From the IMG/VR virus record IMGVR_UViG_3300017774_006254, positions 32,001 to 96,000 of that record: a stretch of 64,000 nt of DNA, one strand, 5' to 3'. Of the stretch, positions 1 to 62,113 are shown piece by piece; positions within the stretch are counted from its first letter, which is position 1; each line of letters starts with the position of its first letter. The DNA comes from a virus. The notes beneath the pieces were generated by a model. That model was not told the origin of the DNA. It saw only the letters and a list, made by a program, of their open reading frames with translations, and ran no database searches. The position numbers and the translations under genes were made by a program.

Positions 1-92
1 AGTACCCCAAACGACATTACGCCCACCTCAGCTCCGTAGAGCCAAGATGGGCGCAGTGTCATGTGTGAGCGGAGAAGGCTCCGCTCATGTCC

Positions 93-905
93 TCAGAGGA
101 CGTCGCGGGAGTGGATGCCGTCGATGAGGTACTTGACGTCCTTCTCGATGTCATCGCGACCCGCCGTCGACAGGCCGGTGCCCGAGGCGCCCGACGCGAC
201 GATCGTTCCGCCAGGACCGTTGCCCCACGCGTCGTTGTTCGGCACGAGGCCGTTCAACTGATCCACAACCGACGCGCCCGAAGCCTGGCCGATCGGCGAT
301 GCGATCGCGATGACGACGAAGCCCTGACGAGGCGGAATGAGGATCGGACGCGCAAGACGCATGAGCGCCGAGCTGGTGGGCACGCCGTTGTTCGCGCGGG
401 GAAGGCGCGAATCAGCGAAGAAACCATCGAGACCACCAGCAAACGGCGTGTACGCCGTGTACGTGGTGAGCTGGGGCTTGTCACCAGCTTGGAACTGCCA
501 GAACAGCTGGTTCTGGGTCTGGTGGTAGAGCTTGTGCACGCGGTTGATGCGGTCTCCGGAGACCGTGCCAACTGCGCCAACCGGCGTCGCGTTGCCCGCG
601 TTGATCGCAGGGAAAGTCTGGTCCGCGCCGGTCGTCGAACGCGGCGACTCGGTATTGAACCTGAAGTACGTCCAAACGCGGACCGCGAGGGTCACGAACG
701 TCTGGTCGGAGGGGAAGAAACCACCGGTCGTCAGGTTGCTGACGGCGATGTCCGCACCCTGCTTGGTGAAGAGCTGCGAGCGGCTCTGCACGGCCCCGAA
801 CACGCCCACGTTCGCCTGACGGAGGTCGCCCTGACCGTCTACGCGAAGGAGGGAATCGTAGAACGGCTGATGGATGCGTTCCCTGGTACCAACAATTTTC
901 GGCAT
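93..905 (-). CDS. Putative jelly-roll major capsid protein
   Basis: ORF from MPKIV (ATG at 905). The pattern QPFYD...QLF...SNL..GGFFP...F...AVRV recalls jelly-roll capsid proteins of tailless viruses. It is beta-rich and lies downstream of the membrane-protein cluster. Confidence 0.5.
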   Translation of the reverse strand: MPKIVGTRERIHQPFYDSLLRVDGQGDLRQANVGVFGAVQSRSQLFTKQGADIAVSNLTTGGFFPSDQTFVTLAVRVWTYFRFNTESPRSTTGADQTFPAINAGNATPVGAVGTVSGDRINRVHKLYHQTQNQLFWQFQAGDKPQLTTYTAYTPFAGGLDGFFADSRLPRANNGVPTSSALMRLARPILIPPRQGFVVIAIASPIGQASGASVVDQLNGLVPNNDAWGNGPGGTIVASGASGTGLSTAGRDDIEKDVKYLIDGIHSRDVL

Positions 906-1067
906 CTTGACTTGCTTTCCAAGTGTGTTGAATGTACTACTCAACACCGGTCCCGCTGATTGAGGATTCCACGGTCCATCCATGGAGCCCACGACCCAAA
1001 ACTTCGCAGTGGTACGGAGCTTTTGCCTTGCGGCTACTGGGTCGCATGATTTGCGCTTGGCTGACTA

Positions 1068-1883
1068 TCAGCCGAGCATTCCGGAGAAGATGTGACGAGC
1101 GAACACGCCGCCCGCGTAGCCCTGATCGCCCGAAGCGAAAGACTTCGAGACGCGGCGGACCTGAGGCCTGGACTGCATGGGAATCGCGCCGTCCGTAGGC
1201 GTGATGGTGGTGACCGCTTCCATGCGGTTCATCGAGCTGTCGACTGCACCTTGGTCACCGGGCTCGCCAAGGTCGCCGATGCCAGAGATGCCGTCGCCAG
1301 AGTCGCCGAGGCCGCTCATCGGCTGATCGACGTACTCACCGATGCCAGCCGCGGCGTACATCGTGCCGAGACCAAGCATTCCCTTGTAAGGCGCGCCCGC
1401 GTGGGAGATGTCGTATCCACGACCCATCCCAGAGAGCATGCCTTCGTTGTAGTAGCCCGCCGTAGCCGTTGGAGCCGCAGTCGCCGGAGCGCTTGCGACA
1501 GCCGGAAGGATGGCAGCTGCTGGTGAGCCGCCGAGCATCGGCATGTTGCGAATGAACGATTCCGATGCAGCAAGCCCCGCTCCGATCACCGCCGCATTGG
1601 CCATTGGGCCGCTGACGAGGGAAGGAAGCGAACGCTGGGCAGCGAAGTAGGCCGGGATGAGAACGGCCGCAGCGGCAACCTTGCCATACCGTGGGTCGGC
1701 AAGCAAGCTGATTTTGCTGGAGGCGATGTTTCCAGCGACACGGGTGGCGACAAAGCCAACCGTGCCACTGAGAACCGGACTTACGACGTCCCGCACGATG
1801 TCAGAGTCCAAGAAATTCTTGAGAATCCGACGGACTCCCCGCTTCGAGCGGGCATTTTTGCGACTGGTACGGCGACGTGCCAT
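1068..1883 (-). CDS. Virion membrane/core protein, paralog of the C-terminal part of 1931..4696
   Basis: Basic N-terminus, 2-3 hydrophobic segments, an EYVDQPMSG motif and the C-terminus GYAGGVFARHIFSGMLG, shared with the neighbouring ORF. Confidence 0.7.
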   Translation of the reverse strand: MARRRTSRKNARSKRGVRRILKNFLDSDIVRDVVSPVLSGTVGFVATRVAGNIASSKISLLADPRYGKVAAAAVLIPAYFAAQRSLPSLVSGPMANAAVIGAGLAASESFIRNMPMLGGSPAAAILPAVASAPATAAPTATAGYYNEGMLSGMGRGYDISHAGAPYKGMLGLGTMYAAAGIGEYVDQPMSGLGDSGDGISGIGDLGEPGDQGAVDSSMNRMEAVTTITPTDGAIPMQSRPQVRRVSKSFASGDQGYAGGVFARHIFSGMLG

Positions 1884-1930
1884 GAGGAACTCCTTGAGAG
1901 ATGTTGCTGCTGAAGCTCAAGAGCCTAGGC

Positions 1931-4696
1931 TCAGAGCATTCCGCCGAAGAGATGACGTGCGAACACGCCGCCTGCGTAGCCCTTGCCCTCTGGCGTGACG
2001 AGCGATGCGTTGATCTCGCGATCAAGCGGCATCTGGCCCGTGACCGGAAGCGCTCCGGAGACTGGCATCTCGATCGACGCCCACGGCGGCTGGCGCTTGG
2101 AGTACATGGCGGCCAGGTCTGCATCCGCTTCGCCCGAGCCCATTTCATCGGACCCGAAGCCAGCTGCGGCCTCCATGACGCCGCCTTCCATGGCGTTCAT
2201 GGCGCCATCAATTCCGGCCATGTTGCCCGGATCGATGCCCTCGGCGTACGAGCCGACGCCCGCTGCCGCGTACATCATGCCCATGCCGCTCATCGGCTGA
2301 TCGACGTACTCGCCGGTGCCTGCTGCGGCATAGAACGCGCCCATGCCGTTCATCGGCTGGCTGACGTACTCGCCGATGCCGTTGACGTACTCACCGAGGT
2401 ACGCAGCAGCGCTTGTTCCCGCCGACACGCGCTGAATGACGCGGTCAGCGAGGGCCAGGCCCATGCCGGTGACGAGTGCGCCACGATGACGCCTCACGAT
2501 GCCCACCTTGGTCGCGAGACCAAGCGTTGCAGCGATGCCGAGGATGTTCGCGGCGATCTTGGTGTTCGAGGCGCCCGAAGCGTCCGAAGCGCCCGAGTCA
2601 AGCATGCCTCGGACCGCGCCGATGTTCGCGACACCGTTCGAGAGCAAGCGTGCTGCGATGAAACCAGCGGTGCCGCCAAGAACTGGCGTTGCGACATCAA
2701 GGATCGCGCCCATGCCGTTGCGACGAACGCCACGACGCGAACCACGACGACGACGTGAGCTGCGACGATTCATGACCACGTACTTCTGATTCCTGCGCAT
2801 CGACGACCTCTTTCTCGACGAACGACGCCTTTTGTTCGCCGTCATCTTCCTGCTTGACTTCCTGGACTTGCGCCGCCCGTACCATGCGGGGGGCTTGCGC
2901 CAACGGCTGTAGCGCCTGCGCTCCGCGTATCCACCAGTGGTGGCGCGTGCGTGCGCGTCCTTCGCAGCTCCGCCGAAGCGGAATTTGCGCACGTACGAGT
3001 GCTGCGAGACGTGCGGCGGAACGAGGACCGGATAGCCCGCGTTGCGGAACTTCCTGCCGGACTTCGGGCCGTACTCGACGAGCTGGTAGTAGCGGCCCTT
3101 GGGCGTGCCGACTCGGCTGGAGCCTGAGCCTCGGTACTTGACCTTCGAGACGGCCAGCATGTTGCGCGTCAAGCGCGAGCCACGACGGCGCGAACCACGG
3201 CGTGATCCGCGACGCGAACCGCGACGCGAACTGCGGCGCCTGTTCATGACCACGTACTTCTGGTTGGCCGTCACACGACGACGCGAACCACGACGACGGC
3301 GTGAGCCTCGACGCGATGAACGACGACCATTGGCCGTGGCGTACATCACATTCTTGCTCATGCGACGGCGCGAGTTCCGGCGAACCGAACCCCGACGCGA
3401 CCTGCGACGACGGCGACCGTTGGCTGTTGCGTACATGGTGTTCTTGCTCATCCTGCGACGTGAGTTGCGACGAACCGCTCGGCGCGAACCTCGGCGCGAC
3501 GAACGACGTGACGATCGGCGCGACGCGCGACGCGACCGGCGACGACCATTGGCCGTCATGCGGCGCTTCCTGCGACCACGGTACGTGGCGCCAACCGCGT
3601 AGCCACGCTTCGAGGAACCACGGGGCTTGCCACGCCTGCTGGTGAGACGACCAGCCGAACGCGGGATCGGGTAGGTGAGAATGCTCGGGCGTCCAGAACG
3701 GCTGAGCGGAAGTCGACCAACCCTCGTGATCGTGGGCATCAGCCCGCGCGTGAGGTACTTGTCGATGTACTCGCGGCCCGTCGTGCGAACACGCTTGCCA
3801 TGAAAGTAGCGCTTCTTGCTGGCGCGCCTGCGGGACGAACGGCGACTGCGCTTGCGCCCATTCGCCTGCATGCGGCTGTTGCGGCGACGGCGCGCTGCTG
3901 CACGCGAAGCCCTCGTCGAGTGGCGCTTGCTTCCGCGAGCGACGGCCACACGGCGACTGCCCCTGCGCGAAGACTTCTTCGAGGTCTTGCGTGACGTCTT
4001 GCGGGCCCTCTTCTTTGGACCAGTGCCAGCCTTGCGCGTGAGCGCGGCCTTGCGACCAGCCCGACGACGCGACGTGCGACGCGCTGATGTCTCGCGAATC
4101 GAAGCTCGGCGACGAGCCTTTCCGCGAGGGGTCTGCCTCGATGCGCGACGGCGACGACCACGCGACGAAATGGACATGCCACCCGCCGAACGCGTCTCAG
4201 TCACAGCCTCATGATCTTGACCACCACGAGCAGCTGCGCCCATTCCTGCGTACATCTCGTCTTCGTCGAACCCGTAGTTGCGACGAAGCCCATTGGACTT
4301 CATTGCCTTCCTCAGGGCGCTGATGTTGTATGCCATTCCACTTCTCCTCTTAGGGTTCCTGAGCATCGAGCCAGGGATCGCTTTGGTTAGGACCGTTCCG
4401 TACTCATCGGTCGCGTAGAGACGAGCTTTGCCTCGGCCCTTTCCGGTCTTGTCCGGATGACGCTCCGCCCAAGACTTCGCACCTTGCAGCGTCCTGTACT
4501 GCGGGCTTTCATGGATCTGCTTCCTACGACCAGAGATCCATTGAAATGGATTTTGCTGCGGAGGACGGCCTGTGTTCACGACAGTCAGCGCATTGACCCC
4601 AGGGTTCGAACGAAGACCACGATTCGGCTCCATGCCAGGCGATCTCTCGTACTGGCGCGCCGACTGCTTGGTGCTTCGTTTGTAGACTAGGGCCAT
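1931..4696 (-). CDS. Arg/Ser-rich protamine-like DNA-condensing core protein with a C-terminal membrane domain
   Basis: 921-aa ORF with roughly 500 aa of RRSSRRGSRR-type low-complexity sequence, then hydrophobic helices and GEYV repeats. There is an internal RBS (GAGGAG) and ATG at 4336. Confidence 0.75.
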   Translation of the reverse strand: MALVYKRSTKQSARQYERSPGMEPNRGLRSNPGVNALTVVNTGRPPQQNPFQWISGRRKQIHESPQYRTLQGAKSWAERHPDKTGKGRGKARLYATDEYGTVLTKAIPGSMLRNPKRRSGMAYNISALRKAMKSNGLRRNYGFDEDEMYAGMGAAARGGQDHEAVTETRSAGGMSISSRGRRRRASRQTPRGKARRRASIRETSARRTSRRRAGRKAALTRKAGTGPKKRARKTSRKTSKKSSRRGSRRVAVARGSKRHSTRASRAAARRRRNSRMQANGRKRSRRSSRRRASKKRYFHGKRVRTTGREYIDKYLTRGLMPTITRVGRLPLSRSGRPSILTYPIPRSAGRLTSRRGKPRGSSKRGYAVGATYRGRRKRRMTANGRRRSRRASRRSSRRSSRRGSRRAVRRNSRRRMSKNTMYATANGRRRRRSRRGSVRRNSRRRMSKNVMYATANGRRSSRRGSRRRRGSRRRVTANQKYVVMNRRRSSRRGSRRGSRRGSRRRGSRLTRNMLAVSKVKYRGSGSSRVGTPKGRYYQLVEYGPKSGRKFRNAGYPVLVPPHVSQHSYVRKFRFGGAAKDAHARATTGGYAERRRYSRWRKPPAWYGRRKSRKSSRKMTANKRRRSSRKRSSMRRNQKYVVMNRRSSRRRRGSRRGVRRNGMGAILDVATPVLGGTAGFIAARLLSNGVANIGAVRGMLDSGASDASGASNTKIAANILGIAATLGLATKVGIVRRHRGALVTGMGLALADRVIQRVSAGTSAAAYLGEYVNGIGEYVSQPMNGMGAFYAAAGTGEYVDQPMSGMGMMYAAAGVGSYAEGIDPGNMAGIDGAMNAMEGGVMEAAAGFGSDEMGSGEADADLAAMYSKRQPPWASIEMPVSGALPVTGQMPLDREINASLVTPEGKGYAGGVFARHLFGGML

Positions 4697-5358: not shown

Positions 5359-5360
5359 GG

Positions 5361-5687
5361 TCAGTCTTGGTGCGCTCCACGCGACAGGAGCTGATCGATT
5401 GACTTCATCACATGCCGCATGTCCGCTTGGACCGTCGCAATGTCCTCGCGCTTGGCCAAAGTGCCAAGCTGAACCTCCATCGAATTGAAGCGCTTGTCCA
5501 CCTGAGCTTCCAACGCAACGACGGTTTTCGACGAGGCGAAAGCGACCTCAAATTCCTTGCGGATTTTCGCGTTCTCTTCGTCCAGCATGGACTTGACGTC
5601 GTTCTTGATCTTCATCCCGAGCGCCCACAGGAAGAACGGGACGATGATGGTTAGGCCTGTTTGGATATGAGTCCACTCGATAGTCAT
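5361..5687 (-). CDS. N-terminal transmembrane plus coiled-coil protein (holin-like or membrane-associated)
   Basis: MTIEWTHIQTGLTIIVPFFLWALG TM segment followed by a coiled coil; start abuts the upstream stop. Confidence 0.5.
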   Translation of the reverse strand: MTIEWTHIQTGLTIIVPFFLWALGMKIKNDVKSMLDEENAKIRKEFEVAFASSKTVVALEAQVDKRFNSMEVQLGTLAKREDIATVQADMRHVMKSIDQLLSRGAHQD

Positions 5688-6355
5688 CATCCGTCGATCC
5701 CGTCCTTGAGAACACACAGTCCGCCGCCAGCCATAACCATCAGGAAACCATCCTTCGGCGAGTAAAGGGCGAGCATGTCTCCCTTCGGCGTGCAGTAGAG
5801 GTAACAGCCGCGAGGGTTGATCTCGTAGACCTCGTTGTCGTCGAAACGCTCGACGAAAACACCGAGGCAGTATCCAAGAAGCGTCAAAGCTCCTGGGGCG
5901 CGGACAGGGAGCTTCTCAGCTTTAGCTGGCGCTGCCCTGCGTTTGCCACCGATGGTGCTCTTTGACGCCTCACGTGCAGGCTCGTACGCAATGACGCCCT
6001 TGCCAAACTCGTACTCCTTGTCGGAGCCGCCACTGCTGTCGTCGTGAACGTGCTTGTAATCTTCGTCGTCGCCGTCTTCATGCCACTTGTCAGTGCGGTA
6101 CATCGTGGATACAACTTGTCCAACGGGTACCACTGACGTGGGCAGGTCGTGATTCAGCTCGACGGTCCTGAGCGGGCGCTTTGCATGAAAGGTCTCGTAT
6201 CGACCCATGGCCCCGTCAAGATCTTTCCCGTGCCGTCCCGAGACTTCATCGGGGTCGATGTCGCGACCAACGTGACTCGTGTCCATCGAAGCGCGGCCAT
6301 TCAGTGTGGACCCGTTGGGCGCAAGGCCCGTGTCTGCTTTGCGTAGGAATCGCAT
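5687..6355 (-). CDS. Hypothetical virion protein
   Basis: ORF from MRFLRK, preceded by a GAAGAAG RBS-like sequence, in the structural operon. Confidence 0.55.
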   Translation of the reverse strand: MRFLRKADTGLAPNGSTLNGRASMDTSHVGRDIDPDEVSGRHGKDLDGAMGRYETFHAKRPLRTVELNHDLPTSVVPVGQVVSTMYRTDKWHEDGDDEDYKHVHDDSSGGSDKEYEFGKGVIAYEPAREASKSTIGGKRRAAPAKAEKLPVRAPGALTLLGYCLGVFVERFDDNEVYEINPRGCYLYCTPKGDMLALYSPKDGFLMVMAGGGLCVLKDGIDG

Positions 6356-6356
6356 A

Positions 6357-6698
6357 TCACTTCTTCTTCCGAAAATGATAGTACAGCGCAACCACGCTTG
6401 CACCAGCTGCGAACATGAGCCAGGGCGATCCTGTCACGCCGCTGATCGCGCCAGCATCGTCGCCCAGGTCCATCATGCTGTTTGGTAAGCGCCGGATTTC
6501 TCCATGCGGCAAATGGTCCCATCCCATGAATGCAGCGCCTCCAGGCAACGGCTTCACATCCGTGTCCGGATTGGCGCCGATAGGGCTGTCTACGATAGGT
6601 TTCGGCGGAAGAGCATCATCGCCGACGGAGACATGAGCCGGAGTCGTGTAGATTCCGTACGCGTTTCTGTCCCAGTTCCATACGGAGTAGAGCGCCAT
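6357..6698 (-). CDS. Small C-terminally anchored membrane protein
   Basis: DLGD motif, then TM segment WLMFAAGASVVALYY and basic tail RKKK. Confidence 0.65.
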   Translation of the reverse strand: MALYSVWNWDRNAYGIYTTPAHVSVGDDALPPKPIVDSPIGANPDTDVKPLPGGAAFMGWDHLPHGEIRRLPNSMMDLGDDAGAISGVTGSPWLMFAAGASVVALYYHFRKKK

Positions 6699-6752
6699 TT
6701 TGACTCGCTGTTGTGCACCAAGGCGCCCACCGTCAAGGTAGCACGGTCTCGC

Positions 6753-7142
6753 TTATCCACGCACTTGGATTCGAAGCATAGCTTTCAGTAGTGCGCGCAG
6801 GCCCGGAACCAAATCGAGCTTCAGCGCGTCTTCGGCATCGGCCCAGCGCATGTCGCTCGATTCCCAGTTGGGTTTGGGAGTGCCAGTCCACGCTGTGCAC
6901 ATGTACGTCGTCAGAGTGCCCCATTTACCTCTGGACTCGGCCACTTTTAAGAGCCCTTTTACTCGCAAATTAGCTTCTTCGAGGGTCTCGCGGATGACTG
7001 CCTGTCGCGGTGTTTCTCCGGGATCGACCTTCCCCATGGGGGTATTCCACCGGTCCGGCATCCATGGGGCTGTCGAGCCTCGACGCAGGAGAAGGATGCG
7101 CCCTTGCTTGTCCACAAGGATGCAAGCTGCGGCGTCCGTCAC
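6753..7142 (-). CDS. Nudix hydrolase
   Basis: Nudix box GKVDPGETPRQAVIRETLEEANL; GTG start overlaps the upstream TGA. Confidence 0.85.
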   Translation of the reverse strand: MTDAAACILVDKQGRILLLRRGSTAPWMPDRWNTPMGKVDPGETPRQAVIRETLEEANLRVKGLLKVAESRGKWGTLTTYMCTAWTGTPKPNWESSDMRWADAEDALKLDLVPGLRALLKAMLRIQVRG

Positions 7143-7423
7143 CTGACCGCTCGTCGTGAGTTCTTCTTCATGTTCGACGCGCCGAAAAAGACAGCGGCTG
7201 CGACGCCCACAAGGCCTGCCCAGCCAAGCACCACTGGCCACCCAATAGCCTGCCGAGGAGGTGGCGTTGGGTCTGAAGCTTGCCCAAGAGCCCGAGCTTG
7301 AGCAATCTCCATTGGGGAGTGGCGACAAGGTGCCGTTGAGATCCGCAACTCGTGGGGTCCCATACAGCGACACCTCGACGTCACGACACCGCACCGGCAT
7401 CTCTCGATGTAGTGGCCCATCAC
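7139..7423 (-). CDS. Small membrane protein with Cys-rich N-terminus
   Basis: CRC..CRC, ALGQ, TM helix, tail MKKNSRRAVR. Confidence 0.6.
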   Translation of the reverse strand: MMGHYIERCRCGVVTSRCRCMGPHELRISTAPCRHSPMEIAQARALGQASDPTPPPRQAIGWPVVLGWAGLVGVAAAVFFGASNMKKNSRRAVR

Positions 7424-7719
7424 TTCCTTCGGAAAGCGAAGAAAGCTCCAACGCCAAGCAGGAGCGCTCCACCGATGAGGTACGGGGTGTACGAGACCTC
7501 AGGCGCCTGTCCGTATGGGAGTCCGGTCGCGGGGTTGATCGCGCCGTACGGCATGCCTGTCGCCGGGTTCATTGGAACCTGGCCTGCGGTTGCGGAAGGA
7601 TCGGCAGCTGGAGGGGTTCGCCCCGCTGCGATGAGCTGCGCCGCAGCGGTACCCACTGCGGTCGTAATTGCCGCGACATCCTCAGCTGTGGTTCCCATCG
7701 ATCTTGCGTACGACATCAT
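7420..7719 (-). CDS. Small membrane protein (MSY family)
   Basis: MSY start, NPATG(M/L)PYG repeated twice, C-terminal TM and FRRK. Confidence 0.65.
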   Translation of the reverse strand: MMSYARSMGTTAEDVAAITTAVGTAAAQLIAAGRTPPAADPSATAGQVPMNPATGMPYGAINPATGLPYGQAPEVSYTPYLIGGALLLGVGAFFAFRRK

Positions 7720-7910
7720 CTACTCCTTCGGTTGCGTTTGACACGACGACGAGCAACTGCGTATGCCGCCCAGCTCAAGGCAACCGCTGCGACTCCAAGT
7801 GCGATTGTACCGCCGATGACAGTGTTCGCCACAGACGTGACGGTCTGCTGAATGGCATGCTCAACAGCTGGCGTGGACTGCCCAAGAGCGCGAATGTGTT
7901 GGTAGCTCAT
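7716..7910 (-). CDS. Small membrane protein (MSY family)
   Basis: MSYQHIRALGQ, TM helix, tail VKRNRRSR; ATGA coupling. Confidence 0.65.
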   Translation of the reverse strand: MSYQHIRALGQSTPAVEHAIQQTVTSVANTVIGGTIALGVAAVALSWAAYAVARRRVKRNRRSR

Positions 7911-8539
7911 TTTCGCCTGTTCCTTCGCACTCGTCCACGAGGGCTGTAAGCAAGAGACCGCGCCGTCCGCTGCGACACGTAAACGGCCGCCCCAACAAGA
8001 CCAATGGCTACCACAGCCGCAGAGCCGATGATGAGAGGCGAGGTGGGAGGTGTCAGACCAACCGTGTCTGGTGGATCTTGCGGAGATGTGCGCGGCGGAG
8101 GATCGGGGACCGGACCGACCGGATACACGTAAACGTCATCCCGAAGGGGAGGCATGATGATCCTGTATCTGCGCAGAATGATTTGTGATCGCGGGCTGAT
8201 CTCCAACGAGGCCCGAAGCAAAGCATCTCGAATGGAGGTCGCATAAGCCACAGCGGGACGCTCACTCGTCGGCCTCCAGCGCGCATACAAAAAACCACCC
8301 GTGACCCACCTGACATCAAGAACAGTCCCCATAGAAGACAGCGTAGACCGAACGATCGCTTTTGCCGTCTCAGCCTGCTCTGGGGTGATGTTCCTGACGA
8401 CCAAGTTTGCGTCGAGAGCTGGGACAAACCCATAAAGCCCAACGCCAAGCCTCGTGACGCCAACAGAGAGACCTTGGACCTCAGTTGTGTTTGCTGTCGG
8501 AATGGAAACCGGAGTTTCGCCAGAAAGTGCGTAGCTCAT
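7907..8539 (-). CDS. Membrane-anchored virion protein (MSY family)
   Basis: MSYALSG start at 8539, C-terminal TM, tail VRRNRRK. Confidence 0.65.
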   Translation of the reverse strand: MSYALSGETPVSIPTANTTEVQGLSVGVTRLGVGLYGFVPALDANLVVRNITPEQAETAKAIVRSTLSSMGTVLDVRWVTGGFLYARWRPTSERPAVAYATSIRDALLRASLEISPRSQIILRRYRIIMPPLRDDVYVYPVGPVPDPPPRTSPQDPPDTVGLTPPTSPLIIGSAAVVAIGLVGAAVYVSQRTARSLAYSPRGRVRRNRRK

Positions 8540-9647: not shown

Positions 9648-9683
9648 ACCCTCTTCTCGCAGCGATCACCTCGCGGCGTTTCT

Positions 9684-10355: not shown

Positions 10356-10415
10356 GCCCAGCCTTCAATTGTGAGTTCGAGATCCACCCAAAGATCTCGT
10401 CAGGTTCAGAACAGC

Positions 10416-11492: not shown

Positions 11493-11848
11493 CGCCTGCT
11501 CCTTGGGCGCCTGTTGGCGCGAACTTGCCTCGACGGCTTCAGGGTGTTCCATGCGAACAGCCCAAAGCTGCCAATCGACAACGCGAGTCCAATCAGCGAG
11601 TAACGCTCCATCCGCTGGGCTCGCTGCTCTTCCTTCGACAACTCCGTGACTTGGCCAAGGTGCGACGACTGAAGGTACGGACGACGCGGTCCGAGATGCT
11701 CAGACCGAAGACGAGGCGGCTGCGTGGTGTAGATGAATTGCGACACCGAGCCCCGCTGACGCTGCGGCTGACTGAGGTCCGCAAATACCCACGGGTTCGT
11801 AACTCCCCATGGCTGATAGCCAAGGGCTCTGTTCACTCGGTAGGTCAT
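11489..11848 (-). CDS. Small membrane protein (MTY)
   Basis: MTYRVNRALG, HLGQ, TM, tail VRANRRPRSRR. Confidence 0.6.
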   Translation of the reverse strand: MTYRVNRALGYQPWGVTNPWVFADLSQPQRQRGSVSQFIYTTQPPRLRSEHLGPRRPYLQSSHLGQVTELSKEEQRAQRMERYSLIGLALSIGSFGLFAWNTLKPSRQVRANRRPRSRR

Positions 11849-12117
11849 CACTCCTCCTGACCGCGGCGAATGCTCTTCGCGACGTTCTTCTTGATACGAG
11901 GCATGAGCCAACCCCAGACCGCGTAGCCAATTCCAATTCCCGTGGCAACTCCCAATGGAATCGTGAACGCAGGGCGCTTGTACCAAGCAAGGGCGCTGGT
12001 ATCGACTTGCCCAACGCCGTACAAGGGGACAACGCCTGCTGCCGCTGTGCGGACGCCGGTCATGTTCTGTGCGTAAGCCTCACGAGCTTGAGGCGTGACG
12101 AAGTCCTGTGCGTTCAT
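11848..12117 (-). CDS. Small membrane protein
   Basis: YGVGQ, TM, IKKN plus basic tail. Confidence 0.6.
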   Translation of the reverse strand: MNAQDFVTPQAREAYAQNMTGVRTAAAGVVPLYGVGQVDTSALAWYKRPAFTIPLGVATGIGIGYAVWGWLMPRIKKNVAKSIRRGQEE

Positions 12118-13541
12118 CGAAGTCCAGCCTTCCTCGCAAGCTTCTTGGCGTTGCGCGTGATCGACTTGCGGTTGCTCCAGGCGAAGTAGCCACCAATGCC
12201 GATCGCTGCTCCGATCAGCAAGCGTGTCGGCGTGATGAACGAAGGCGAGGCGGGAGCCACGGGCTCTGCTGTGACCTGGCCCATGCCAGCGACAGCCGCC
12301 GAGCTGAAGAGTGCCCCGAGGTCACCCTTCATTGCATTCTGGTCGCGCACCAGCGGACCAAGATGCGCCGCCGCCGCCGCCTGCATCGGAGCGCGAGTGC
12401 GCCTTACGCTCGTCGACAGACGATCGAGGTTCGGAAGCGATCCTTTTGACCGAGCGACCCCCTGAAGGTCTTTGACCGTTGCGTGCATGATGGCATGCGC
12501 GAGCGTGTCTTCGAGCGCCGACTCGGGCTGCTGCCCAAGGTCCACGAGCCGCTTGGCTGTGCTGCCAGTGCGAGCCGCTGTTCCAGCCCCGAGAGAGTCA
12601 GCTGCCTGAGCGACGAACCTCGACCGCTCCTTGGGAGCCAAAGACCTCGCCTCCGTCATGATGAGACGAGCGGCCTTCCGTCCGAAAGCTTCGACGTGGC
12701 TGCGTGGACCAGACTCGCTCTGACGCATCTCTGGCACAGGCTTGGAGACGAAGGGCGAGTACCCAGGCTTGTACGAGTTGACGTTCGTGGCCAGCGTCAC
12801 GCCGCCAGCCGAAGGCTGAACGACACGCCACTCATTCGCGGTTGTGTCCCACATCTCACTCTGTTGGACGCCAAGATCGTCTTCATCCGCGAGGTAGGCA
12901 GGTAGCGCGTACTGGTTTGCGAAGGAGCCGTCACGCGGACGCCACGTAACCCCTTCTTCCATGTCAAACACGCCGCTTCCGATCGTGCTCTGTGTCGAGT
13001 CGTTGAACTCGTAGCTCTCGCGATCGTACAGCATGTCAGAGGGGATTCCCTCGTTCGATGGCTGCTGGTTGCGGTTGCCATGCCAGGACGCTGGGGGAAC
13101 CTGAACGTCATCGTGGACTTCGAGAACTTCTGGCTCGTTGTGCATATCGTCTCGCGCGAACTTTCTGGGCGGGCTCATGTCAACATCGCCGAGGTTTGAG
13201 TCTCGGAGTGCCATGTCCGTCCGTTGCATCGAATGAGGGCGGTAGCCTACCGCGCTTCCTGGGCCCCAAGGATACGAGCCGTAGGTGGTCGCAGCCGCGT
13301 CCGGACTGTCCACGTCGTCTGCGATCTTGAATCGAGACATGCCTTCGACATCTGGAGCTGGAGCTGCGCCGGGGTTCCTTCCTGGAGTCGACAGTGTGTC
13401 TTCCTGAAGGTCGTCATCGAGGAACGATGAACCTTGCCCATTGGGACCACGGGCGTAGTCCTGCGCGTCAAGGTTCGCGTTGCCTCGCATGGTCGGAATG
13501 GCCATGTCGCCATCATCGTCAAACCCGTAATCGTTACTCAT
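12114..13541 (-). CDS. Membrane-anchored protein with acidic N-terminal half
   Basis: RBS GAGGAG before MSNDY; helical domain related to the two upstream paralogs; AGMGQ, TM, ITRN plus basic tail. Confidence 0.65.
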   Translation of the reverse strand: MSNDYGFDDDGDMAIPTMRGNANLDAQDYARGPNGQGSSFLDDDLQEDTLSTPGRNPGAAPAPDVEGMSRFKIADDVDSPDAAATTYGSYPWGPGSAVGYRPHSMQRTDMALRDSNLGDVDMSPPRKFARDDMHNEPEVLEVHDDVQVPPASWHGNRNQQPSNEGIPSDMLYDRESYEFNDSTQSTIGSGVFDMEEGVTWRPRDGSFANQYALPAYLADEDDLGVQQSEMWDTTANEWRVVQPSAGGVTLATNVNSYKPGYSPFVSKPVPEMRQSESGPRSHVEAFGRKAARLIMTEARSLAPKERSRFVAQAADSLGAGTAARTGSTAKRLVDLGQQPESALEDTLAHAIMHATVKDLQGVARSKGSLPNLDRLSTSVRRTRAPMQAAAAAHLGPLVRDQNAMKGDLGALFSSAAVAGMGQVTAEPVAPASPSFITPTRLLIGAAIGIGGYFAWSNRKSITRNAKKLARKAGLR

Positions 13542-13553
13542 GTCTCTCCTCAC

Positions 13554-14252
13554 TCACTTCAACAGGAAGTATCCGACGCCGAGGGTGGCCACAACTGCGC
13601 TTCCGCCCATCAAATAGAGGCGAATCTGCGCACTGCGCGCGTTGGCCTGGTTGGCTGATGCCTGAGCCGCTGCCGCTGCCTGAGCCATCTGAAGGTTCGC
13701 CTGAGCTTGCGCCGCCGCCGCCGCTGCCTCGCGACTCTCGCGCCCACAGTCAAGCTCTCCTCCAGCAATAGCCGATCCGATGCTTAGTACACCGCCTACG
13801 ATTTGACCGTACACGGGAATGACACTGGCCACGCCACCGACCGTCGACGCGCCGCTCGCAATGCTACATGCGGTAGCTCGGTCATTCGCGGAGAACGCGC
13901 CTAGCGCCTCTGCTCCGTGGATACGTGCCGCATCCATCCGAAGCGACTCGATACCTTCGCCACGCTTGAAGTTCGCGATGGCAAGTCGGATCGCGTCGAA
14001 CAAAGACTGGTCGTTGCCTTTTCCAGACGATACGATCTCCTGGTACATCCGATTGACATGGCGAGCCATGCCAGGAGCGATAGCGTCCAGGCTATTGCTG
14101 ATGAATCTGCGGCGTACATCAACTGGCTTCCGTGCCGCTTTGAGTAGTAGCTGCGAAGCGCGCAGTGATGCGTTCGCAAGTACCGCGTCGTGTTGCGCCG
14201 CGGAACCTACCGTCATGGCCCTTGACGGGCGAGCTGCTAGTGAGTACGTCAT
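13554..14252 (-). CDS. Membrane-anchored virion protein (paralog of 14252..14902)
   Basis: MTY start, FDAIRL motif, Ala-rich helix, C-terminal TM. Confidence 0.65.
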   Translation of the reverse strand: MTYSLAARPSRAMTVGSAAQHDAVLANASLRASQLLLKAARKPVDVRRRFISNSLDAIAPGMARHVNRMYQEIVSSGKGNDQSLFDAIRLAIANFKRGEGIESLRMDAARIHGAEALGAFSANDRATACSIASGASTVGGVASVIPVYGQIVGGVLSIGSAIAGGELDCGRESREAAAAAAQAQANLQMAQAAAAAQASANQANARSAQIRLYLMGGSAVVATLGVGYFLLK

Positions 14253-14902
14253 TACTTCAGAGCGATCTTGGCTGCGACAGCTAGCGCCAAAATCCCAGCG
14301 ATTCCGACGCCCGCATAGAGTACCGTGCGATTCGTCTGCGCGCCCGTGTTTAGCCTTGCCATCTCTAGGGCGGCGGCGGCCTGCTGCGCGGCCACTTCAG
14401 CTTGTAGGCGAAGGGTCGGGAGGTTGCAATTCCCAATCGCCGCTCCAGCATTCGCTCCTCCGACGATGGAGGTGTCTGCTCCAGATCGAAACGCTCCAAC
14501 CCAGCCGCCCGTGCTCGCTGAGAGCGAGGCACCTGTGCAGGCAAACGTGTTCGCATCCGCGGCGAAGTCGCCAAGCCCCGACATGCCACGAGCCGCCTGA
14601 CTTCCAGCCCATTCCTGTAGGCGATTGGCGAGCACGAGCCGAATCGCGTCGAACACCGCTTGATCCGGAGTGCGCGTGCGAGAGATGATGCCGATCTTTG
14701 CGATCGCTTCGTCTCCCATCTTTGGCCACAGGTTGTTCAGGCGGTTGCGAAGCCAAGCCATTCTGGATGAAGCGTCAACCTTGGCCATGTGGAGCATGAC
14801 TTCGCTCGCCATGAGCGAAGCTTTGCTCACGAACGGATCTGTCTGAGCAAGCTGCCCCGAGACGACTTGCCCGAGCCCAGCCATTGCTTGTGCGTAGCTC
14901 AT
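14252..14902 (-). CDS. Membrane-anchored virion protein (MSY family)
   Basis: MSYAQAMAGLGQ start at 14902, FDAIRL, MSGLGD, C-terminal TM. Confidence 0.65.
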   Translation of the reverse strand: MSYAQAMAGLGQVVSGQLAQTDPFVSKASLMASEVMLHMAKVDASSRMAWLRNRLNNLWPKMGDEAIAKIGIISRTRTPDQAVFDAIRLVLANRLQEWAGSQAARGMSGLGDFAADANTFACTGASLSASTGGWVGAFRSGADTSIVGGANAGAAIGNCNLPTLRLQAEVAAQQAAAALEMARLNTGAQTNRTVLYAGVGIAGILALAVAAKIALK

Positions 14903-15234
14903 CGACTTCTCCGACGCGACTTTCGGCCGCTTCTGTTCTTGGTGACACCAGGACGCGCAAAGCCTTGCGTGAACGCAATCACCGGGACAACAACAGGGAG
15001 CATCGCGCCCCCAAGAAACCACGCGAGCGTCCACCCGAGGTCGCCGCGATTCCGCTTGTACCCATGGTACGCAGAAACCGCTGCGCTGATAGTCGAGAGT
15101 CCCCAACCAGCAACCACCATCGCTCCTGTCGGTCGGAACGTGACGGTGATCGGAGACGGAACTGAATCGATCGCCTGTCCGAACGCTGAGAGGCCGATTC
15201 CGGGACCGTCGTAGTAGTTCGTCTTGGTGGTCAT
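14899..15234 (-). CDS. Two-TM membrane protein
   Basis: AYHGYKRN between two TM helices; tail VTKNRSGRKSRRRSR. Confidence 0.65.
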   Translation of the reverse strand: MTTKTNYYDGPGIGLSAFGQAIDSVPSPITVTFRPTGAMVVAGWGLSTISAAVSAYHGYKRNRGDLGWTLAWFLGGAMLPVVVPVIAFTQGFARPGVTKNRSGRKSRRRSR

Positions 15235-15235
15235 A

Positions 15236-15832
15236 TCAGTCAATCTCGAAAATGGTGTATTGCTTGATCCGACGAAGCATATTCCCTGTCCGGCGCCCCG
15301 CAACAGGATCGAGGACCCACCACTGCTTCGTGCGGGGATCTTGAGCACGCGCAAAGACGTGCGTATGAATTTTCGGCTCGCCAGCCAACTGCGGCTTGAA
15401 GCCACAAGTGACAAACTGACCTCGGGCCCCGATTGTCAGACAAGATGTAGCAATCGCGAGAGCGATGTCGTCACAGTCGCAAGCGGCACGCCCCGCAAGG
15501 GCATCAGCCAGAATACGGTCGGGACTGCGAATCAGCTCAACGTGCAGAGGATCGCGCGTGTACCTGGTTGCGTTTCCCCACCAGCGGGAGATCGCGATGC
15601 ACTCGCTCGAATAGTCCTTCGGCCGCACGTTGTTGATGATCTGTTCCGTGTGTCTGCGGAAACTGATACTGCGCTCCCCCTGCAACGCATTCTGCACCAT
15701 CACTCGCGGGTCGACGAGACCCTTTGCGAGGTTGATCATCACGGCAACAGTGTGATCAGTACCTCGGTATGGTTCCGTGGTACCAACTGCGTTGTTGTAG
15801 GTCGGTGAGTATGAGTTTGCTCTGAGCTGCAT
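15236..15832 (-). CDS. Transglutaminase-like cysteine protease (candidate maturation protease)
   Basis: Catalytic-triad motifs ACDCDD, HTHVF and WWVLDP; YTRDP upstream. Confidence 0.8.
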   Translation of the reverse strand: MQLRANSYSPTYNNAVGTTEPYRGTDHTVAVMINLAKGLVDPRVMVQNALQGERSISFRRHTEQIINNVRPKDYSSECIAISRWWGNATRYTRDPLHVELIRSPDRILADALAGRAACDCDDIALAIATSCLTIGARGQFVTCGFKPQLAGEPKIHTHVFARAQDPRTKQWWVLDPVAGRRTGNMLRRIKQYTIFEID

Positions 15833-16393: not shown

Positions 16394-16665
16394 TAGGCCT
16401 GCTCGGTCTCCTTCGACTGCACGAAGCCCCAGAGGCGCATCATCTTCATGGGGTCTTGCATGATGGATCGGAATGCCTCCTTGGCCCCAGATGCATTGTC
16501 GCCGACGAGTTCGCCAAGTTCAGCAACGACTGCATCCATCTCCTGCATTTTTTCACGCAGGAGTGAGTCCGGAGCTTCCAAGTTCAAAGCCACGAGAAGC
16601 TCCTCGCCGATGGCGATTGCCCTCATCGCTTTCTCTCCGACGCCCTTCAGCTCTTCTTCGGTCAT
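16393..16665 (-). CDS. Hypothetical protein
   Basis: Coupled helical ORF. Confidence 0.5.
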   Translation of the reverse strand: MTEEELKGVGEKAMRAIAIGEELLVALNLEAPDSLLREKMQEMDAVVAELGELVGDNASGAKEAFRSIMQDPMKMMRLWGFVQSKETEQA

Positions 16666-19088
16666 TGTTGCAATCCTGCGGAAATACGAGCAAAAGCTTC
16701 GAGTACGAACTTCTGTCCAGCGGGCGTTGCGCCTGCCGAATTGGGTGCGGTCTCCATGATACCACGAGCGATATCCTCAGGCTTGTAGACGCTCACGACT
16801 TGGCGCAAGGTCGCCGCGGGCCAGTCTCGCAGAACCGCCTCTGCGAACTCTTCTGGTTCGTCCGCATTGGAGACCGCCTTGTGGACCAGCGTGGAGAGGA
16901 GGGTGAGCCCTTGCCGCTCTTGTGAAGTCATCGTGCGCGCGACTCGGGCTGGCGGCTCTGGTGGCGGCGCAGGTGGCTGATCGAAGATCGTCGGTTCTTG
17001 ACGCCGCTCTGGGCGCCTCTCAGGGCGACGCGGTTCTTCTTCTCCGCCGCCTTCCCACGGTGGCCTGCGCCGCGTTGGAAGCGGTTCGGAGCCGTACTGA
17101 CTGGGCTCCGCGAAGTTCTGCGTTGCCGACACGGTCTTCCGGCGCGGTGGCTGTGCGAGGTCGTCCGCGTCAGGAATTCCTTGGCGTCTCGGCGCTACAA
17201 CTGACTGTCTGCGCGGGGGAAGCATGCGTCCTTGCGGCGGCGCTTGCATCGCCGCTTTCGGAACAAGCCCCAGTCCTCCTTGCGGAGTCTCGATCACAAC
17301 CATCTCTCCGTTCGGAGTGTTGACGATCTGGCCGACGGTGTACTGCGGCGCTTGCTGCGGCGCTTGTTGCTGGGGTGCCATCATGGCGCCGATTACCTGC
17401 ATCAGCTGTGGCAGTCTGTCTGTCACACCTTCGGCAAGTTGCGTCTTCCAGTCGTCGCCCGTTGGAGGAGAGATTCCGCCGCCACTGCTTCCGCCGCTGT
17501 TCGACGGCACGCCGAAAGCGTCCCGAAGCTCGTTCGTCTTGTGGAGCAGGGCGATCGGATCGCTGTTGTCAACCATGCGACTCTTCATGTCGGCGCCTTC
17601 ACTTCGAAGGCGATCGATCTCCTGCTGAAGCCATCCAGCGCGGTTCTCCATGCTCGCGACGACTGTCTGGTGACGGCTCTCCCAGTTCTGGTTTGTCGTG
17701 GAAAGCTGCATTTCCATGCGGTCCTTCCACGCGCGGTCTGACGCCTCGTTCAATTCTCGATGACGCTCTTGGTCGCGGCGACGCTCTTCGCGTTCGTTCT
17801 TGAGCAGGTCTTCGATGCGTTCTTCACGGCGCTTCGCCTCGGTCCTGTCTGCTGCAAGCTCTCGTTGATGGCTCTCACGCATCGAAGAGAGTTCTTGCGC
17901 GTGCGACTGCCGCATCGAGTTGACCAGGTTGTCGTGCTGCTTCGACTGCGTTTCCAGCAGTTGCTGTGTCTGCGCGCGAACAGCTTCGAGATCGGTCTGG
18001 TGCTTTGACAGCACGCTTTCCAGCATGCGCTCGGCGGACTTACCGCTCTCCCCCTTGTCACCGCTGCCTTGCATCAGCGCGAAGATGTTTTTGATTGTTT
18101 CAGAGGGCGATTCGCGCTGACGGTCCATTTCTTCCTGTCTCTCTCGGATGATTTTCATCTCCGCTGCCTGAACGCTCAGCTGTTCCTGGAGATACCGACG
18201 CTCCAGTTCAGAGCGCTCTTTTTCCGCCCTCACCAGATCGTCCGCGCGTTGCCGTTCCATGTCGATCAGGGGGCGCATGTTTGCTGTCGCGATCTCAGCC
18301 ATCTTCGACGCGCGCTCCTCAGAGCGAATGCGTTCCTGACGTTCGTCCTTGGCCAACTCAGTTGCCATTTTCATGGCCACTTCTGTCGACTTCGGATTCT
18401 CGGCTGCGGGATAGTGCATCTGTGGGATGGATGCTGCTGCCGCCGACTCGCGAGCGGCCACGGCTGCTGCGCCGTTCTGAATCGCCCTCGGCTGACGATT
18501 AGAATTCGGGTCTCCAGCCAAAGAGATCGTGATCGAGTCGTAGTGCTTGAGCACTTGCGGCTTGTCTGGGGTCGGGCCCATCACGACGATGCGATACACG
18601 CCGCCGCCGTACTCGGACATCAGGAACTCTTCAGTGAGAACCTGCTGCCACGTGTCGTAGTACCCATCTGCCTTGATCCCGCCAGGAAAAATCTTTGGCC
18701 AATTCCTGTAGAGGTAGAGGCAATACTCGGTTGTCTGCCCGATGTTGTACTTGGACATCAAGTCGCCGAGAGACTTCTCTTTCTCGACAACTTTCATCAC
18801 TTTCTGCGGAGGAAGGATGGCATCCAGAACTTCGGAAGAAACCGTCTCCTTGGGCTCTCTCACCCTCGGCGCACGCCTTGGCTTCGGTGCTTCCTCGGCG
18901 TCGATGTCCTGCACCTTCTCCTCTTCGTCATCCTCTTCCTCCTCGTCGTCGTCCTCTTCGCGAGCGCGTACTCGCGAAGGCGGAAGACTTTGAGGTGCCG
19001 TGACAACACGTCGTGTTCCAGCTCCAGAAGCGCGAGACGCGATGTCTGCAACTTCGTCGTCGATATCAAACATCGTCGACATTTTCAC
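16662..19088 (-). CDS. Large coiled-coil protein (scaffold or tape-measure-like)
   Basis: 808 aa: acidic N-terminus, globular domain (EYGGGVYRI), long E/R/Q-rich coiled coil, Pro-rich C-terminus. Confidence 0.65.
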   Translation of the reverse strand: MKMSTMFDIDDEVADIASRASGAGTRRVVTAPQSLPPSRVRAREEDDDEEEEDDEEEKVQDIDAEEAPKPRRAPRVREPKETVSSEVLDAILPPQKVMKVVEKEKSLGDLMSKYNIGQTTEYCLYLYRNWPKIFPGGIKADGYYDTWQQVLTEEFLMSEYGGGVYRIVVMGPTPDKPQVLKHYDSITISLAGDPNSNRQPRAIQNGAAAVAARESAAAASIPQMHYPAAENPKSTEVAMKMATELAKDERQERIRSEERASKMAEIATANMRPLIDMERQRADDLVRAEKERSELERRYLQEQLSVQAAEMKIIRERQEEMDRQRESPSETIKNIFALMQGSGDKGESGKSAERMLESVLSKHQTDLEAVRAQTQQLLETQSKQHDNLVNSMRQSHAQELSSMRESHQRELAADRTEAKRREERIEDLLKNEREERRRDQERHRELNEASDRAWKDRMEMQLSTTNQNWESRHQTVVASMENRAGWLQQEIDRLRSEGADMKSRMVDNSDPIALLHKTNELRDAFGVPSNSGGSSGGGISPPTGDDWKTQLAEGVTDRLPQLMQVIGAMMAPQQQAPQQAPQYTVGQIVNTPNGEMVVIETPQGGLGLVPKAAMQAPPQGRMLPPRRQSVVAPRRQGIPDADDLAQPPRRKTVSATQNFAEPSQYGSEPLPTRRRPPWEGGGEEEPRRPERRPERRQEPTIFDQPPAPPPEPPARVARTMTSQERQGLTLLSTLVHKAVSNADEPEEFAEAVLRDWPAATLRQVVSVYKPEDIARGIMETAPNSAGATPAGQKFVLEAFARISAGLQQ

Positions 19089-19632
19089 TCACTTCTGACG
19101 AGTCCGCGGCGGCATCGCCTGAGGCAGCTTCCGGCTCCGCATCGCCCTCAGTGGGCTTCTCGTCGTCTCGCGTGCCCATCAGATCTTCTGCAAGATCCTC
19201 GATGCTCTCGCTGCAACGGTTGAAGGCCGCCTGAAGCTCCTCGTCGTCAGGGTACTTCTTCTGAAGAAGAGAGCCTAGCGCGAAGAAGTCTTCCTCAAGC
19301 GCTTCCAGAGCTTCAGCACCGGGGACAATCAGCTCGCCGTTGGCCCCCTCGACAGGAGTGCCGAGCTTCGCCAGTGCGCCGCCGTACACCTGGCGCATGC
19401 TCAAGACCTGCTCTTCGGTGCTCACCGCGAGGGTGTAGATGTCGAAGAGGCCCTGGCCCATGAGCGTGACGATGTCTTGCAGGCGCGGGTAGAGGAACTG
19501 CGCGAGGAACGCCTTGAGCTGCTCCGGCTTGGCGAACTCCTTGTCGCGGACAAGCTTCTGACGATCTTCCTTGAGCTTGCCGATCAGGTTGACGAATTCT
19601 GGAGCGAGGGGGACTTCGTTTTCTTGCGCCAT
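19066..19632 (-). CDS. Hypothetical acidic helical protein
   Basis: ORF from MAQENEV with an RBS-like sequence. Confidence 0.55.
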   Translation of the reverse strand: MAQENEVPLAPEFVNLIGKLKEDRQKLVRDKEFAKPEQLKAFLAQFLYPRLQDIVTLMGQGLFDIYTLAVSTEEQVLSMRQVYGGALAKLGTPVEGANGELIVPGAEALEALEEDFFALGSLLQKKYPDDEELQAAFNRCSESIEDLAEDLMGTRDDEKPTEGDAEPEAASGDAAADSSEVSENVDDV

Positions 19633-19664
19633 TTTGGACTCTTCTTTCTGATGGATCTGGTGGA

Positions 19665-20189
19665 CTAAAAATCGAGCTTTCCGCTCTTTTCTGAGGTTTC
19701 GGCCGCCAGGTCTTTCTGACGCTGGCGGAAGTCTCGAACGATGCGAATCGAGACGAGATCTTGCGGGCTCCGAGCGTTGCACGCGTAGACGTTTCCGCGG
19801 TGCTCCCACTGTTCGGATCCAGTGGCGAGCCAGCGGCAAAACTGCCGAATCTGGCGCATCTCGCCAAAGCCTTTTGCGACGCCATCAGCTGGCAACACGA
19901 GCGTGACCAAGTGCACGCACTCGGGGCGCGTTCCGTCGGATGACTCTGCGCAGATGAAATTGGCGTCCGTAAGGCCGTCTTCTTGTTCTGGAGGGCCATC
20001 TCCACCGACAGCAGGCATGCCGTCCGCTGCCATGCTGACTCCGACGAATCCGGTCTTGTAGTATTTTGACGAGTCGACCTCCATGCGCTGCTGGCCGTGG
20101 TGTCCGACCTCGGTTTCGCTCAGATCTCCTGGCTGATCTCCGCTTTCAGGCGAGTTGGGGTCGAAGATGCCGTTCTCGTTGGGATTCAT
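19665..20189 (-). CDS. Hypothetical Cys-containing protein
   Basis: ORF from MNPNENG, first gene of the leftward operon. Confidence 0.5.
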   Translation of the reverse strand: MNPNENGIFDPNSPESGDQPGDLSETEVGHHGQQRMEVDSSKYYKTGFVGVSMAADGMPAVGGDGPPEQEDGLTDANFICAESSDGTRPECVHLVTLVLPADGVAKGFGEMRQIRQFCRWLATGSEQWEHRGNVYACNARSPQDLVSIRIVRDFRQRQKDLAAETSEKSGKLDF

Positions 20190-62107: not shown

Positions 62108-62113
62108 GGCACC

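Follow-up and report, generated by a model that had tools for sequence, protein, structure and literature searches.

A candidate lineage of large tailless, membrane-containing bacterial viruses with no recognizable packaging motor

How might a 161.5-kb virus genome be enclosed in a particle when no terminase, portal or tail gene can be recognized in it? The question is raised by a 64,000-nucleotide stretch of DNA (hereafter the window), bases 32001-96000 of the single-contig IMG/VR virus record IMGVR_UViG_3300017774_006254. An earlier reading of the letters alone (the sequence-only reading) had read this element of more than 64 kb as a probable large tailless membrane-containing virus of an undescribed group. 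The whole record is 161,502 bp long, and its first 123 bases recur at its end, indicating a circular or terminally redundant assembly. Large prokaryotic virus genomes are assumed to require the terminase-portal motor of tailed phages, and to our knowledge the genomes of the tailless membrane-containing viruses characterized from bacteria and archaea all measure about 10-31 kb. We found no description in the literature of a group such as the one proposed. Our computational analysis supports the proposal without proving it: we put at roughly 0.55 the probability that the record represents an undescribed lineage of large tailless, internal-membrane, double-stranded DNA (dsDNA) viruses of bacteria, with a design closest to that of the Portogloboviridae.

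The genome has a G+C content of about 60% and a single tRNA-Arg(TCT). Left of window position 20522, and on beyond the window's left edge, genes are encoded on the minus strand; the rest of the window, from about 20.5 kb onward, has its genes on the plus strand. The same-strand module spans genome positions 18183-52522, so that base 1 of the window lies inside it and about 13.8 kb of it lie further left. The minus-strand operon is confirmed by gene calls on an identical Logan contig. We propose that this module, made up of window positions 1-20522 and the 13.8 kb to their left, is the operon for virion morphogenesis in a tailless dsDNA virus of bacteria, 161.5 kb in size and outside the described families.

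To compare the module across relatives, we used 10 IMG/VR genomes of 111-298 kb, three of which have terminal repeats, and loci from metagenome-assembled genomes (MAGs). Conservation was mapped by tblastn of all open reading frames (ORFs) against eight MAG loci and two distant relatives taken whole, G008 and G010, which are complete or near-complete; names such as L013 and L014 denote loci of relatives. The features of the module are as follows, in window coordinates unless stated otherwise.

Genome 28332-29342, minus strand, left of the window: P0199, the 314-amino-acid neighbor of the capsid candidate (tblastn, profile searches)
93..905, minus strand: P0001, the 270-amino-acid capsid candidate (predicted fold, conservation, codon bias)
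1068..1883, minus strand: 271-amino-acid protein with a short basic N-terminus, a hydrophobic domain and a conserved C-terminus (BLASTP, relatives)
1931..4696, minus strand: 921-amino-acid protamine-like protein with a 491-residue Arg/Ser-rich core and a hydrophobic membrane-type domain (composition)
5687..6403, minus strand: 238-amino-acid conserved core protein (tblastn matches in L013, L014, L017 and G010; no family match)
6357..6698, minus strand: 113-amino-acid tail-anchored membrane protein with a C-terminal hydrophobic segment and a basic end (homologues in L013, L014 and L017)
6753..7472, minus strand: NUDIX hydrolase inside the module (phrog_1198, E 1e-17; PF00293 on the Logan gene call)
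7420..15414, minus strand: cluster of about a dozen membrane proteins, most of them with a Lys/Arg-rich tail after a single transmembrane segment at the C-terminus (hydropathy scan, tail counts)
15236..15832, minus strand: P0319, a 198-amino-acid transglutaminase-fold Cys-His-Asp enzyme, candidate maturation protease or cross-linker (PF01841, triad)
16662..19088, minus strand: 808-amino-acid protein, acidic at the N-terminus, whose long Glu/Arg/Gln-rich middle looks by eye like a coiled coil (sequence)
19066..20522, minus strand: first two genes of the module, beside the strand-switch region (ORF list, strand layout; no Pfam or PHROG family matches)

A conserved gene trio and the predicted fold of its capsid candidate

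Three genes tie the relatives together. In profile searches, all 10 of the 10 relatives had a single copy of the capsid candidate, of P0199 and of the transglutaminase-like gene, with the order and the common strand of the three preserved. The same three are common to G008 and G010, where they are the best conserved genes (the capsid candidate at 31-35% identity); the 238- and 808-amino-acid genes are found, of these two whole relatives, in G010 only. Replication genes are mostly not common to the relatives. Such a pattern would be expected if the trio belonged to a virion module characteristic of a virus lineage. The trio is also carried by a relative of nearly double the size (L028, record G003; 297,749 bp, CheckV completeness 90%).

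The 270-amino-acid protein is the product of a real gene, as an independent gene call on the Logan contig gives an identical product. Its family comprises 257 protein clusters; the top 120 are at least 69% identical, and more distant members of 180-265 amino acids share 27-47% identity. G+C at third codon positions is 0.78 in this gene, the highest of the 55 ORFs of the module, with the others at 0.55-0.73. Sequence searches gave no assignment: Pfam at E ≤ 1 on every member of the family alignment found nothing consistent, tblastn against GenBank phages found no match, and profile searches of PDB sequences with the capsid-candidate and P0199 families returned noise only.

The sequence-only reading had named 93..905 as a candidate jelly-roll capsid protein, and structure prediction supports this. 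An initial fold from a shallow alignment of close homologues (predicted local distance difference test score, pLDDT, of 59) gave generic sandwich matches only and was superseded by a second AlphaFold2 model built from a diverse 45-sequence alignment (pLDDT 75, predicted template modeling score 0.75). This model is an eight-stranded beta-sandwich with one long helix. Its top Foldseek match in the PDB is the capsid chain of Sulfolobus polyhedral virus 1 (SPV1; 6oj0_A, probability 0.97, E 1e-2). VIA-align against 48,161 representatives likewise ranks SPV1 at the top (Z 7.0 over 137 amino acids), and only 13 chains reach Z ≥ 5, among them capsid proteins of the membrane-containing viruses STIV (Sulfolobus turreted icosahedral virus), HCIV-1 (Haloarcula californiae icosahedral virus 1), P23-77 (VP17) and HHIV-2 (Haloarcula hispanica icosahedral virus 2). 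In a second VIA-align comparison, 6oj0_A scored Z 7.8 over 134 of 178 residues with a root-mean-square deviation of 3.7, which is 1.4 above the runner-up; the next matches were P23-77 (6.4), STIV (6.0), HHIV-2 (6.0), HCIV-1 (5.6) and SH1 (5.5). The PRD1 proteins P3 and P5 appear among the weak matches, and neither Foldseek nor VIA-align returned an HK97-fold protein for this model.

We conclude with moderate confidence that the predicted fold of 93..905 is a single jelly-roll-type sandwich and not a double one. The likeness of the model to SPV1 is treated as a resemblance and not as membership, and we make no claim of homology, because the Z scores lie below the level that the notes of the tool require. 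From its conservation, codon bias and fold neighbors, we infer an outer-shell role for the 270-amino-acid protein, which would build the outer icosahedral shell as a single jelly-roll capsid protein.

P0199 may also take part in the shell. Its N-terminal stretch has weak Pfam matches (E ≤ 1) to coiled-coil-type families and is followed by a beta-looking domain of about 250 amino acids. The 270-amino-acid and P0199 families show no profile similarity to each other by hhalign, and neither family has a paralogue in the genome by hmmsearch. A predicted complex of the two proteins scored 0.00, which is evidence neither way.

Candidate membrane, core and processing proteins of the module

The rest of the module holds candidates for the inner parts of such a particle. 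The many small transmembrane proteins named in the sequence-only reading are readily recovered: between 6357 and 15414 on the minus strand, 13 proteins have a hydrophobic segment, and 11 of these are C-terminal anchors followed by 1-24 Arg/Lys-rich residues. The larger membrane proteins scanned gave no Pfam or PHROG match, and the same architecture recurs in the relatives L013, L014 and L017. This topology is shown by the sequences themselves; the tail-anchored cluster is a candidate set of internal-membrane proteins, about a dozen of which would fill an internal lipid membrane with their Lys/Arg tails directed toward the DNA.

At least seven of the membrane-protein genes between window positions 7907 and 15106 on the minus strand appear to start with a shared M-S/T-Y N-terminus, and several of the basic tails carry an Asn just before the Arg run. 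These shared features may represent a common targeting or processing signal.

Between the capsid candidate and the membrane-protein cluster lies an Arg-rich protein. The 921-amino-acid protein contains 180 Arg and 50 Lys; Arg and Lys make up 38% of its residues 170-660, a stretch with only six acidic residues, after which comes a hydrophobic domain. Pfam and PHROG gave no match for the protein. In L013, L014 and L017, large Arg-rich ORFs occupy the equivalent place ahead of the capsid gene. The 271-amino-acid protein is a short paralogue of its C-terminal part (BLASTP against residues 667-921, E 5e-19) and is kept in L011, L012, L014 and L015. The composition makes the 921-amino-acid protein a candidate DNA-condensing, membrane-tethering core protein. 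Together with its short paralogue, it would neutralize and condense the genome and could tether it to the membrane through the hydrophobic domain.

The third gene of the conserved trio encodes a probable enzyme. The Pfam family PF01841 was matched by 13 of the 32 family members of the 198-amino-acid protein (best E 1.9e-5), with the copy in the window alone falling below the Pfam threshold. C120, H158 and D175 are invariant in the 32 sequences, and the Cys-His-Asp order fits PF01841. On this profile match and triad, the protein is assigned to the transglutaminase-like superfamily, as the sequence-only reading had supposed; the protease role given to it there stays a candidate one. In all 10 relatives, the gene lies upstream of the capsid gene on the same strand. 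The enzyme may process or cross-link components of the shell, membrane or core. Designed Kelch repeats also matched this family in the PDB sequence profile search and were rejected as spurious.

The 808-amino-acid protein is kept in G010 (23% identity over 471 amino acids) and has no Pfam or PHROG match; purely as a conjecture from its sequence character, it is a candidate scaffold or size-determining protein.

Packaging genes, known virus systems and competing explanations

If the module builds a tailless particle, the hallmark genes of tailed phages should be absent from the genome as well as from the window. PHROG scans covered about 200 ORFs of the whole genome, directly or as pseudo-alignments, and found no terminase, portal, capsid, sheath, tube, baseplate or true tape-measure family. 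Six-frame searches with the Pfam families Terminase_6N, TerL_ATPase, Phage_portal (PF04860) and Phage_capsid (PF05065) yielded nothing at E ≤ 1 in this genome and nothing at E ≤ 0.01 in the 10 relatives. The absence of terminase, portal and tail genes claimed for the window in the sequence-only reading thus holds by PHROG and Pfam for the rest of the genome too.

Apparent exceptions could be traced to other proteins. The sole 'terminase' PHROG match lies on a superfamily 2 (SF2) helicase, and the 'portal' matches lie only on NUDIX domains; the genome has two NUDIX hydrolase genes, the second at L009:10072-10974 on the minus strand. The 'minor head' and 'tape measure' matches fall on one 301-amino-acid ORF for an M23-type peptidase and cover about 90 positions of very long profiles. 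We attribute them to a shared peptidase-type domain, because the same searches match 10 of 14 control cellular genomes. A 1594-amino-acid protein (genome 138373-143157, L008:12373-17157, minus strand) has no family match and was rejected as a tape measure; it is a string of many short repeats that look like beta modules and in which a G-D-I/T-V motif recurs.

The alternative motor of tailless dsDNA viruses was sought in the same way. FtsK_SpoIIIE (PF01580) and Pox_A32 (PF04665) gave only sub-threshold fragments in 11 genomes. A six-frame Walker-A scan of this genome found only an SNF2 helicase, a MoxR ATPase, a UvrD-like helicase, an SF2 helicase and a 1059-amino-acid protein, and the P-loop proteins of G008 and G010 are only MoxR/AAA+, DnaB and DnaC-like, so that the scans of these three complete genomes left no packaging-ATPase candidate. 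Capsid_NCLDV had no match, and the search with P2_N was uninformative, as its control matched nowhere. The sequence-only reading had proposed that the flanks be searched for an FtsK/A32-type ATPase as against terminase and HK97 genes. No HK97, portal or terminase gene was detected in the flanks or the genome; the expected FtsK/A32-type ATPase did not appear either. Thus neither of the two findings that would have refuted that reading, such tailed-phage genes in the flanks or a fold other than a jelly roll for 93..905, was made. As the hallmark, FtsK/A32 and Walker-A scans gave no candidate, the lineage seems to have neither packaging motor of dsDNA viruses. As no terminase, FtsK/HerA-type or A32-type ATPase was detected, we suggest that the genome would be enclosed as a condensed nucleoprotein core, in the manner of SPV1, and not pumped into a preformed shell.

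Comparison with known systems places this design nearest to SPV1, the best fold match of the 270-amino-acid protein by two programs (PDB 6OJ0; Z 7.8, Foldseek E 1e-2). In SPV1, single jelly-roll proteins form the shell, an inner membrane is accompanied by subcapsomer proteins, the core is a nucleoprotein and there are mini-CRISPR arrays; the Portogloboviridae have circular dsDNA genomes of about 20 kb and a hyperthermophilic archaeal host (PMC8459092). The proposed parallels are the single jelly-roll shell, the membrane beneath it with its many small proteins, and the condensation of DNA by a basic protein, for which the 921-amino-acid core protein is proposed here. SPV1 is not known to encode a packaging ATPase. 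The differences are substantial: the genome is 161.5 kb instead of 20 kb and encodes its own replication kit, its peptidoglycan hydrolases are of bacterial type and its relatives fall in Planctomycetota and other bacterial bins, the 270-amino-acid protein has no sequence similarity to its SPV1 counterpart, and the proposed core protein is a 921-amino-acid Arg/Ser polyprotein-like product where SPV1 has the small VP1. Of the eight MAG bins with relatives, four are Planctomycetota or Lentisphaerota, which together with the peptidoglycan hydrolases gives weak evidence for a bacterial host.

Other tailless viruses are less similar. Members of Helvetiavirae/Singelaviria (P23-77, SH1, HHIV-2, HCIV-1) supply the fold matches ranked 2nd-11th (Z 5.5-6.4), and their shell genes, too, are adjacent and conserved. 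However, the Sphaerolipoviridae, Simuloviridae and Matsushitaviridae have two related single jelly-roll capsid proteins and an FtsK/HerA-type ATPase in genomes of 16-31 kb, whereas here we find one modeled single jelly roll, an adjoining P0199 without profile similarity to it and no ATPase in 161.5 kb. The Tectiviridae and Corticoviridae (PRD1, PM2) infect bacteria, have no tail and enclose a membrane that holds many small virus-coded proteins, and PRD1 carries virion-associated muramidases. They differ in having 10-15-kb genomes and a double jelly-roll capsid protein with an A32/FtsK-type ATPase, neither of which was found here; for the Bamfordvirae at large, the comparison covers the 270-amino-acid model, which is one eight-stranded roll. 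A functional analogy can be drawn with the adenovirus core, in which Arg-rich proteins (protein VII) condense dsDNA inside a jelly-roll shell and are matured by the virion cysteine protease adenain. We do not claim homology; the protease here has a transglutaminase fold and not the adenain fold, and adenovirus has no membrane and does have a packaging ATPase.

These comparisons lead to a broader proposal, which we advance tentatively and at slightly less than even odds: this genome and its relatives, which span 111-298 kb and are widespread in metagenomes, would be bacterial viruses of a new high-rank lineage that combines an SPV1-like shell over a membrane, no motor and condensation by a very large protamine-like protein tethered to the membrane. 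If so, a genome five to ten times larger than in known tailless prokaryotic viruses would be condensed without a motor, and a 110-300-kb clade would overturn the size limit of tailless membrane-containing prokaryotic viruses. It would provide a bacterial counterpart to SPV1-type nucleoprotein-core assembly and would mean that virus-mining pipelines place a whole lineage among the tailed phages by default. The module has parts that can be tested: the shell protein, the protamine-like core protein, the basic-tailed membrane proteins and the transglutaminase-fold enzyme.

Several points weigh against a tailless internal-membrane virus. The virus is known here from its genome sequence alone, structure prediction within the module covered only the 270-amino-acid protein, and the family of that protein has no sequence or profile link to known capsid families in Pfam, PHROG or PDB sequences. 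All Z scores are below 8, a range that according to the tool is common among unrelated beta-sandwiches, and non-viral jelly rolls (PHM) reach Z 5.3-5.8 against the model. The absence of hallmark genes depends on the sensitivity of hidden Markov models (HMMs). Jelly-roll proteins serve also as cement or decoration on tailed-phage heads, and such proteins are found among the weaker fold matches (7dou_4 at Z 5.0, 7eel_H at 4.9, 8h89_J at 4.3); the coiled-coil-type stretch of P0199 could be an HK97-type delta domain. The record might then be a very divergent tailed phage with unrecognizable hallmarks, in which P0199 is an HK97-type capsid protein with its delta domain and the 270-amino-acid protein a decoration or cement protein. 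In genome size and replication kit the record resembles a typical tailed phage, the IMG/VR-derived clusters are mostly labeled Uroviricota, and two unassigned proteins of 477 and 490 amino acids close the operon. These two are not conserved in G008 or G010, however, unlike what is expected of a terminase and portal, and past residue 60 P0199 looks beta-rich by eye and no long spine helix stands out. Among tailed-phage hallmarks, the large terminase subunit is as a rule the one most easily recognized. Neither a terminase nor a portal, HK97, tape-measure, sheath, tube or baseplate family emerged from some 200 ORFs or 11 genomes, the 'tape measure' and 'minor head' matches trace to the peptidase ORF, and the 1594-amino-acid protein does not resemble a tape measure. 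We therefore regard a tailed phage as quite unlikely.

The virus could also be of the proposed kind with its roles assigned otherwise, P0199 or another protein being the hexon (perhaps a compact double jelly roll), the 270-amino-acid protein a penton or minor protein, and the ATPase too divergent to be seen. P0199 is as universal as the 270-amino-acid gene and directly adjoins it in distant relatives, its beta-rich part of about 250 residues is the size of the 269-amino-acid coat protein of PM2, and the penton of PRD1-type viruses is their single jelly-roll protein. In the Atlas, the nearest clusters to P0001 with Pfam domains carry PM2 P2 and PRD1 P3 capsid domains, a link that we rejected, with a score of only 0.76 and no HMM backing. 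We judge this exchange of roles unlikely: the three genomes contain no unassigned P-loop ORF other than the 1059-amino-acid protein, itself not conserved in G008 or G010, Capsid_NCLDV and Pox_A32 yield nothing (P2_N being uninformative), and the 270-amino-acid gene is both more conserved and more codon-biased than that of P0199. Least probable in our view, and very unlikely, is a plasmid-like mobile element misfiled as a virus, whose module would build a membrane-associated structure other than a capsid. ParB, an integrase, the pair of MoxR and a von Willebrand factor A (vWA) protein and many methyltransferases are common on plasmids too, the 123-bp terminal repeat shows circular assembly only, and beta-sandwiches with Z 5-8 to capsids occur in cellular proteins. 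Yet the Walker-A scan revealed no conjugation-type ATPases or other P-loop candidates, a phage-type nucleotide kit is present, and the genome has several endolysin/muramidase genes, one of them within the module. Moreover, the top structural neighbors are membrane-virus capsid proteins and not generic sandwiches, and the extreme conservation and codon bias of the 270-amino-acid gene are typical of a capsid gene. We accordingly retain the tailless internal-membrane virus as the preferred reading.

Replication kit and right-hand genes

The replication and nucleotide-metabolism kit noticed in the sequence-only reading is present, with ThyX, a deoxynucleoside monophosphate phosphatase, a FEN-type 5'-3' exonuclease, an archaeo-eukaryotic primase (AEP), SF2 helicases and ParB. 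Other PHROG matches include the MoxR ATPase with its vWA partner, SNF2 and UvrD helicases, methyltransferases, an integrase, exonucleases, glycosyltransferases and endolysins. Selected features are listed below.

35363-37911, plus strand: MoxR-type AAA+ ATPase (phrog_1297, E 3e-47), then its 470-amino-acid partner (phrog_1314); the pair is also in G008
42613-44487, plus strand: 624-amino-acid protein with transposase (TnpB-type) PHROG matches
54336-59037, plus strand: AEP primase (PF22548 and PriCT_2), then the 1059-amino-acid P-loop protein, which has no family match
59611..63583, plus strand: four beta-rich, Lys/Glu-poor proteins of 235, 418, 178 and 489 amino acids (composition, repeats)
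Genome 96506-97411, plus strand, past the window's right end: 301-amino-acid ORF with an M23-type peptidase lytic domain, after the beta-rich cluster (L053)

The 1059-amino-acid protein, the only unassigned P-loop protein in the genome, is probably a replicative helicase; it is not conserved in G008 or G010.

The beta-rich proteins at the far end had been read as beta-helix spikes, a claim that did not find support: they have no Pfam, PHROG or PDB-sequence match, and only their composition and the N-x-x-I/V repeats in one of the four fit it. They were not found in G008 or G010. These may be variable host-recognition proteins, with putative membership in the virion.

Antisense shadow ORFs of 519, 416 and 236 amino acids lie over real genes (62033-63592 on the minus strand against 62114-63583 on the plus strand, and 8806-10763 on the plus strand). 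The real strand of overlapping ORFs was told by codon-position G+C and Arg content.

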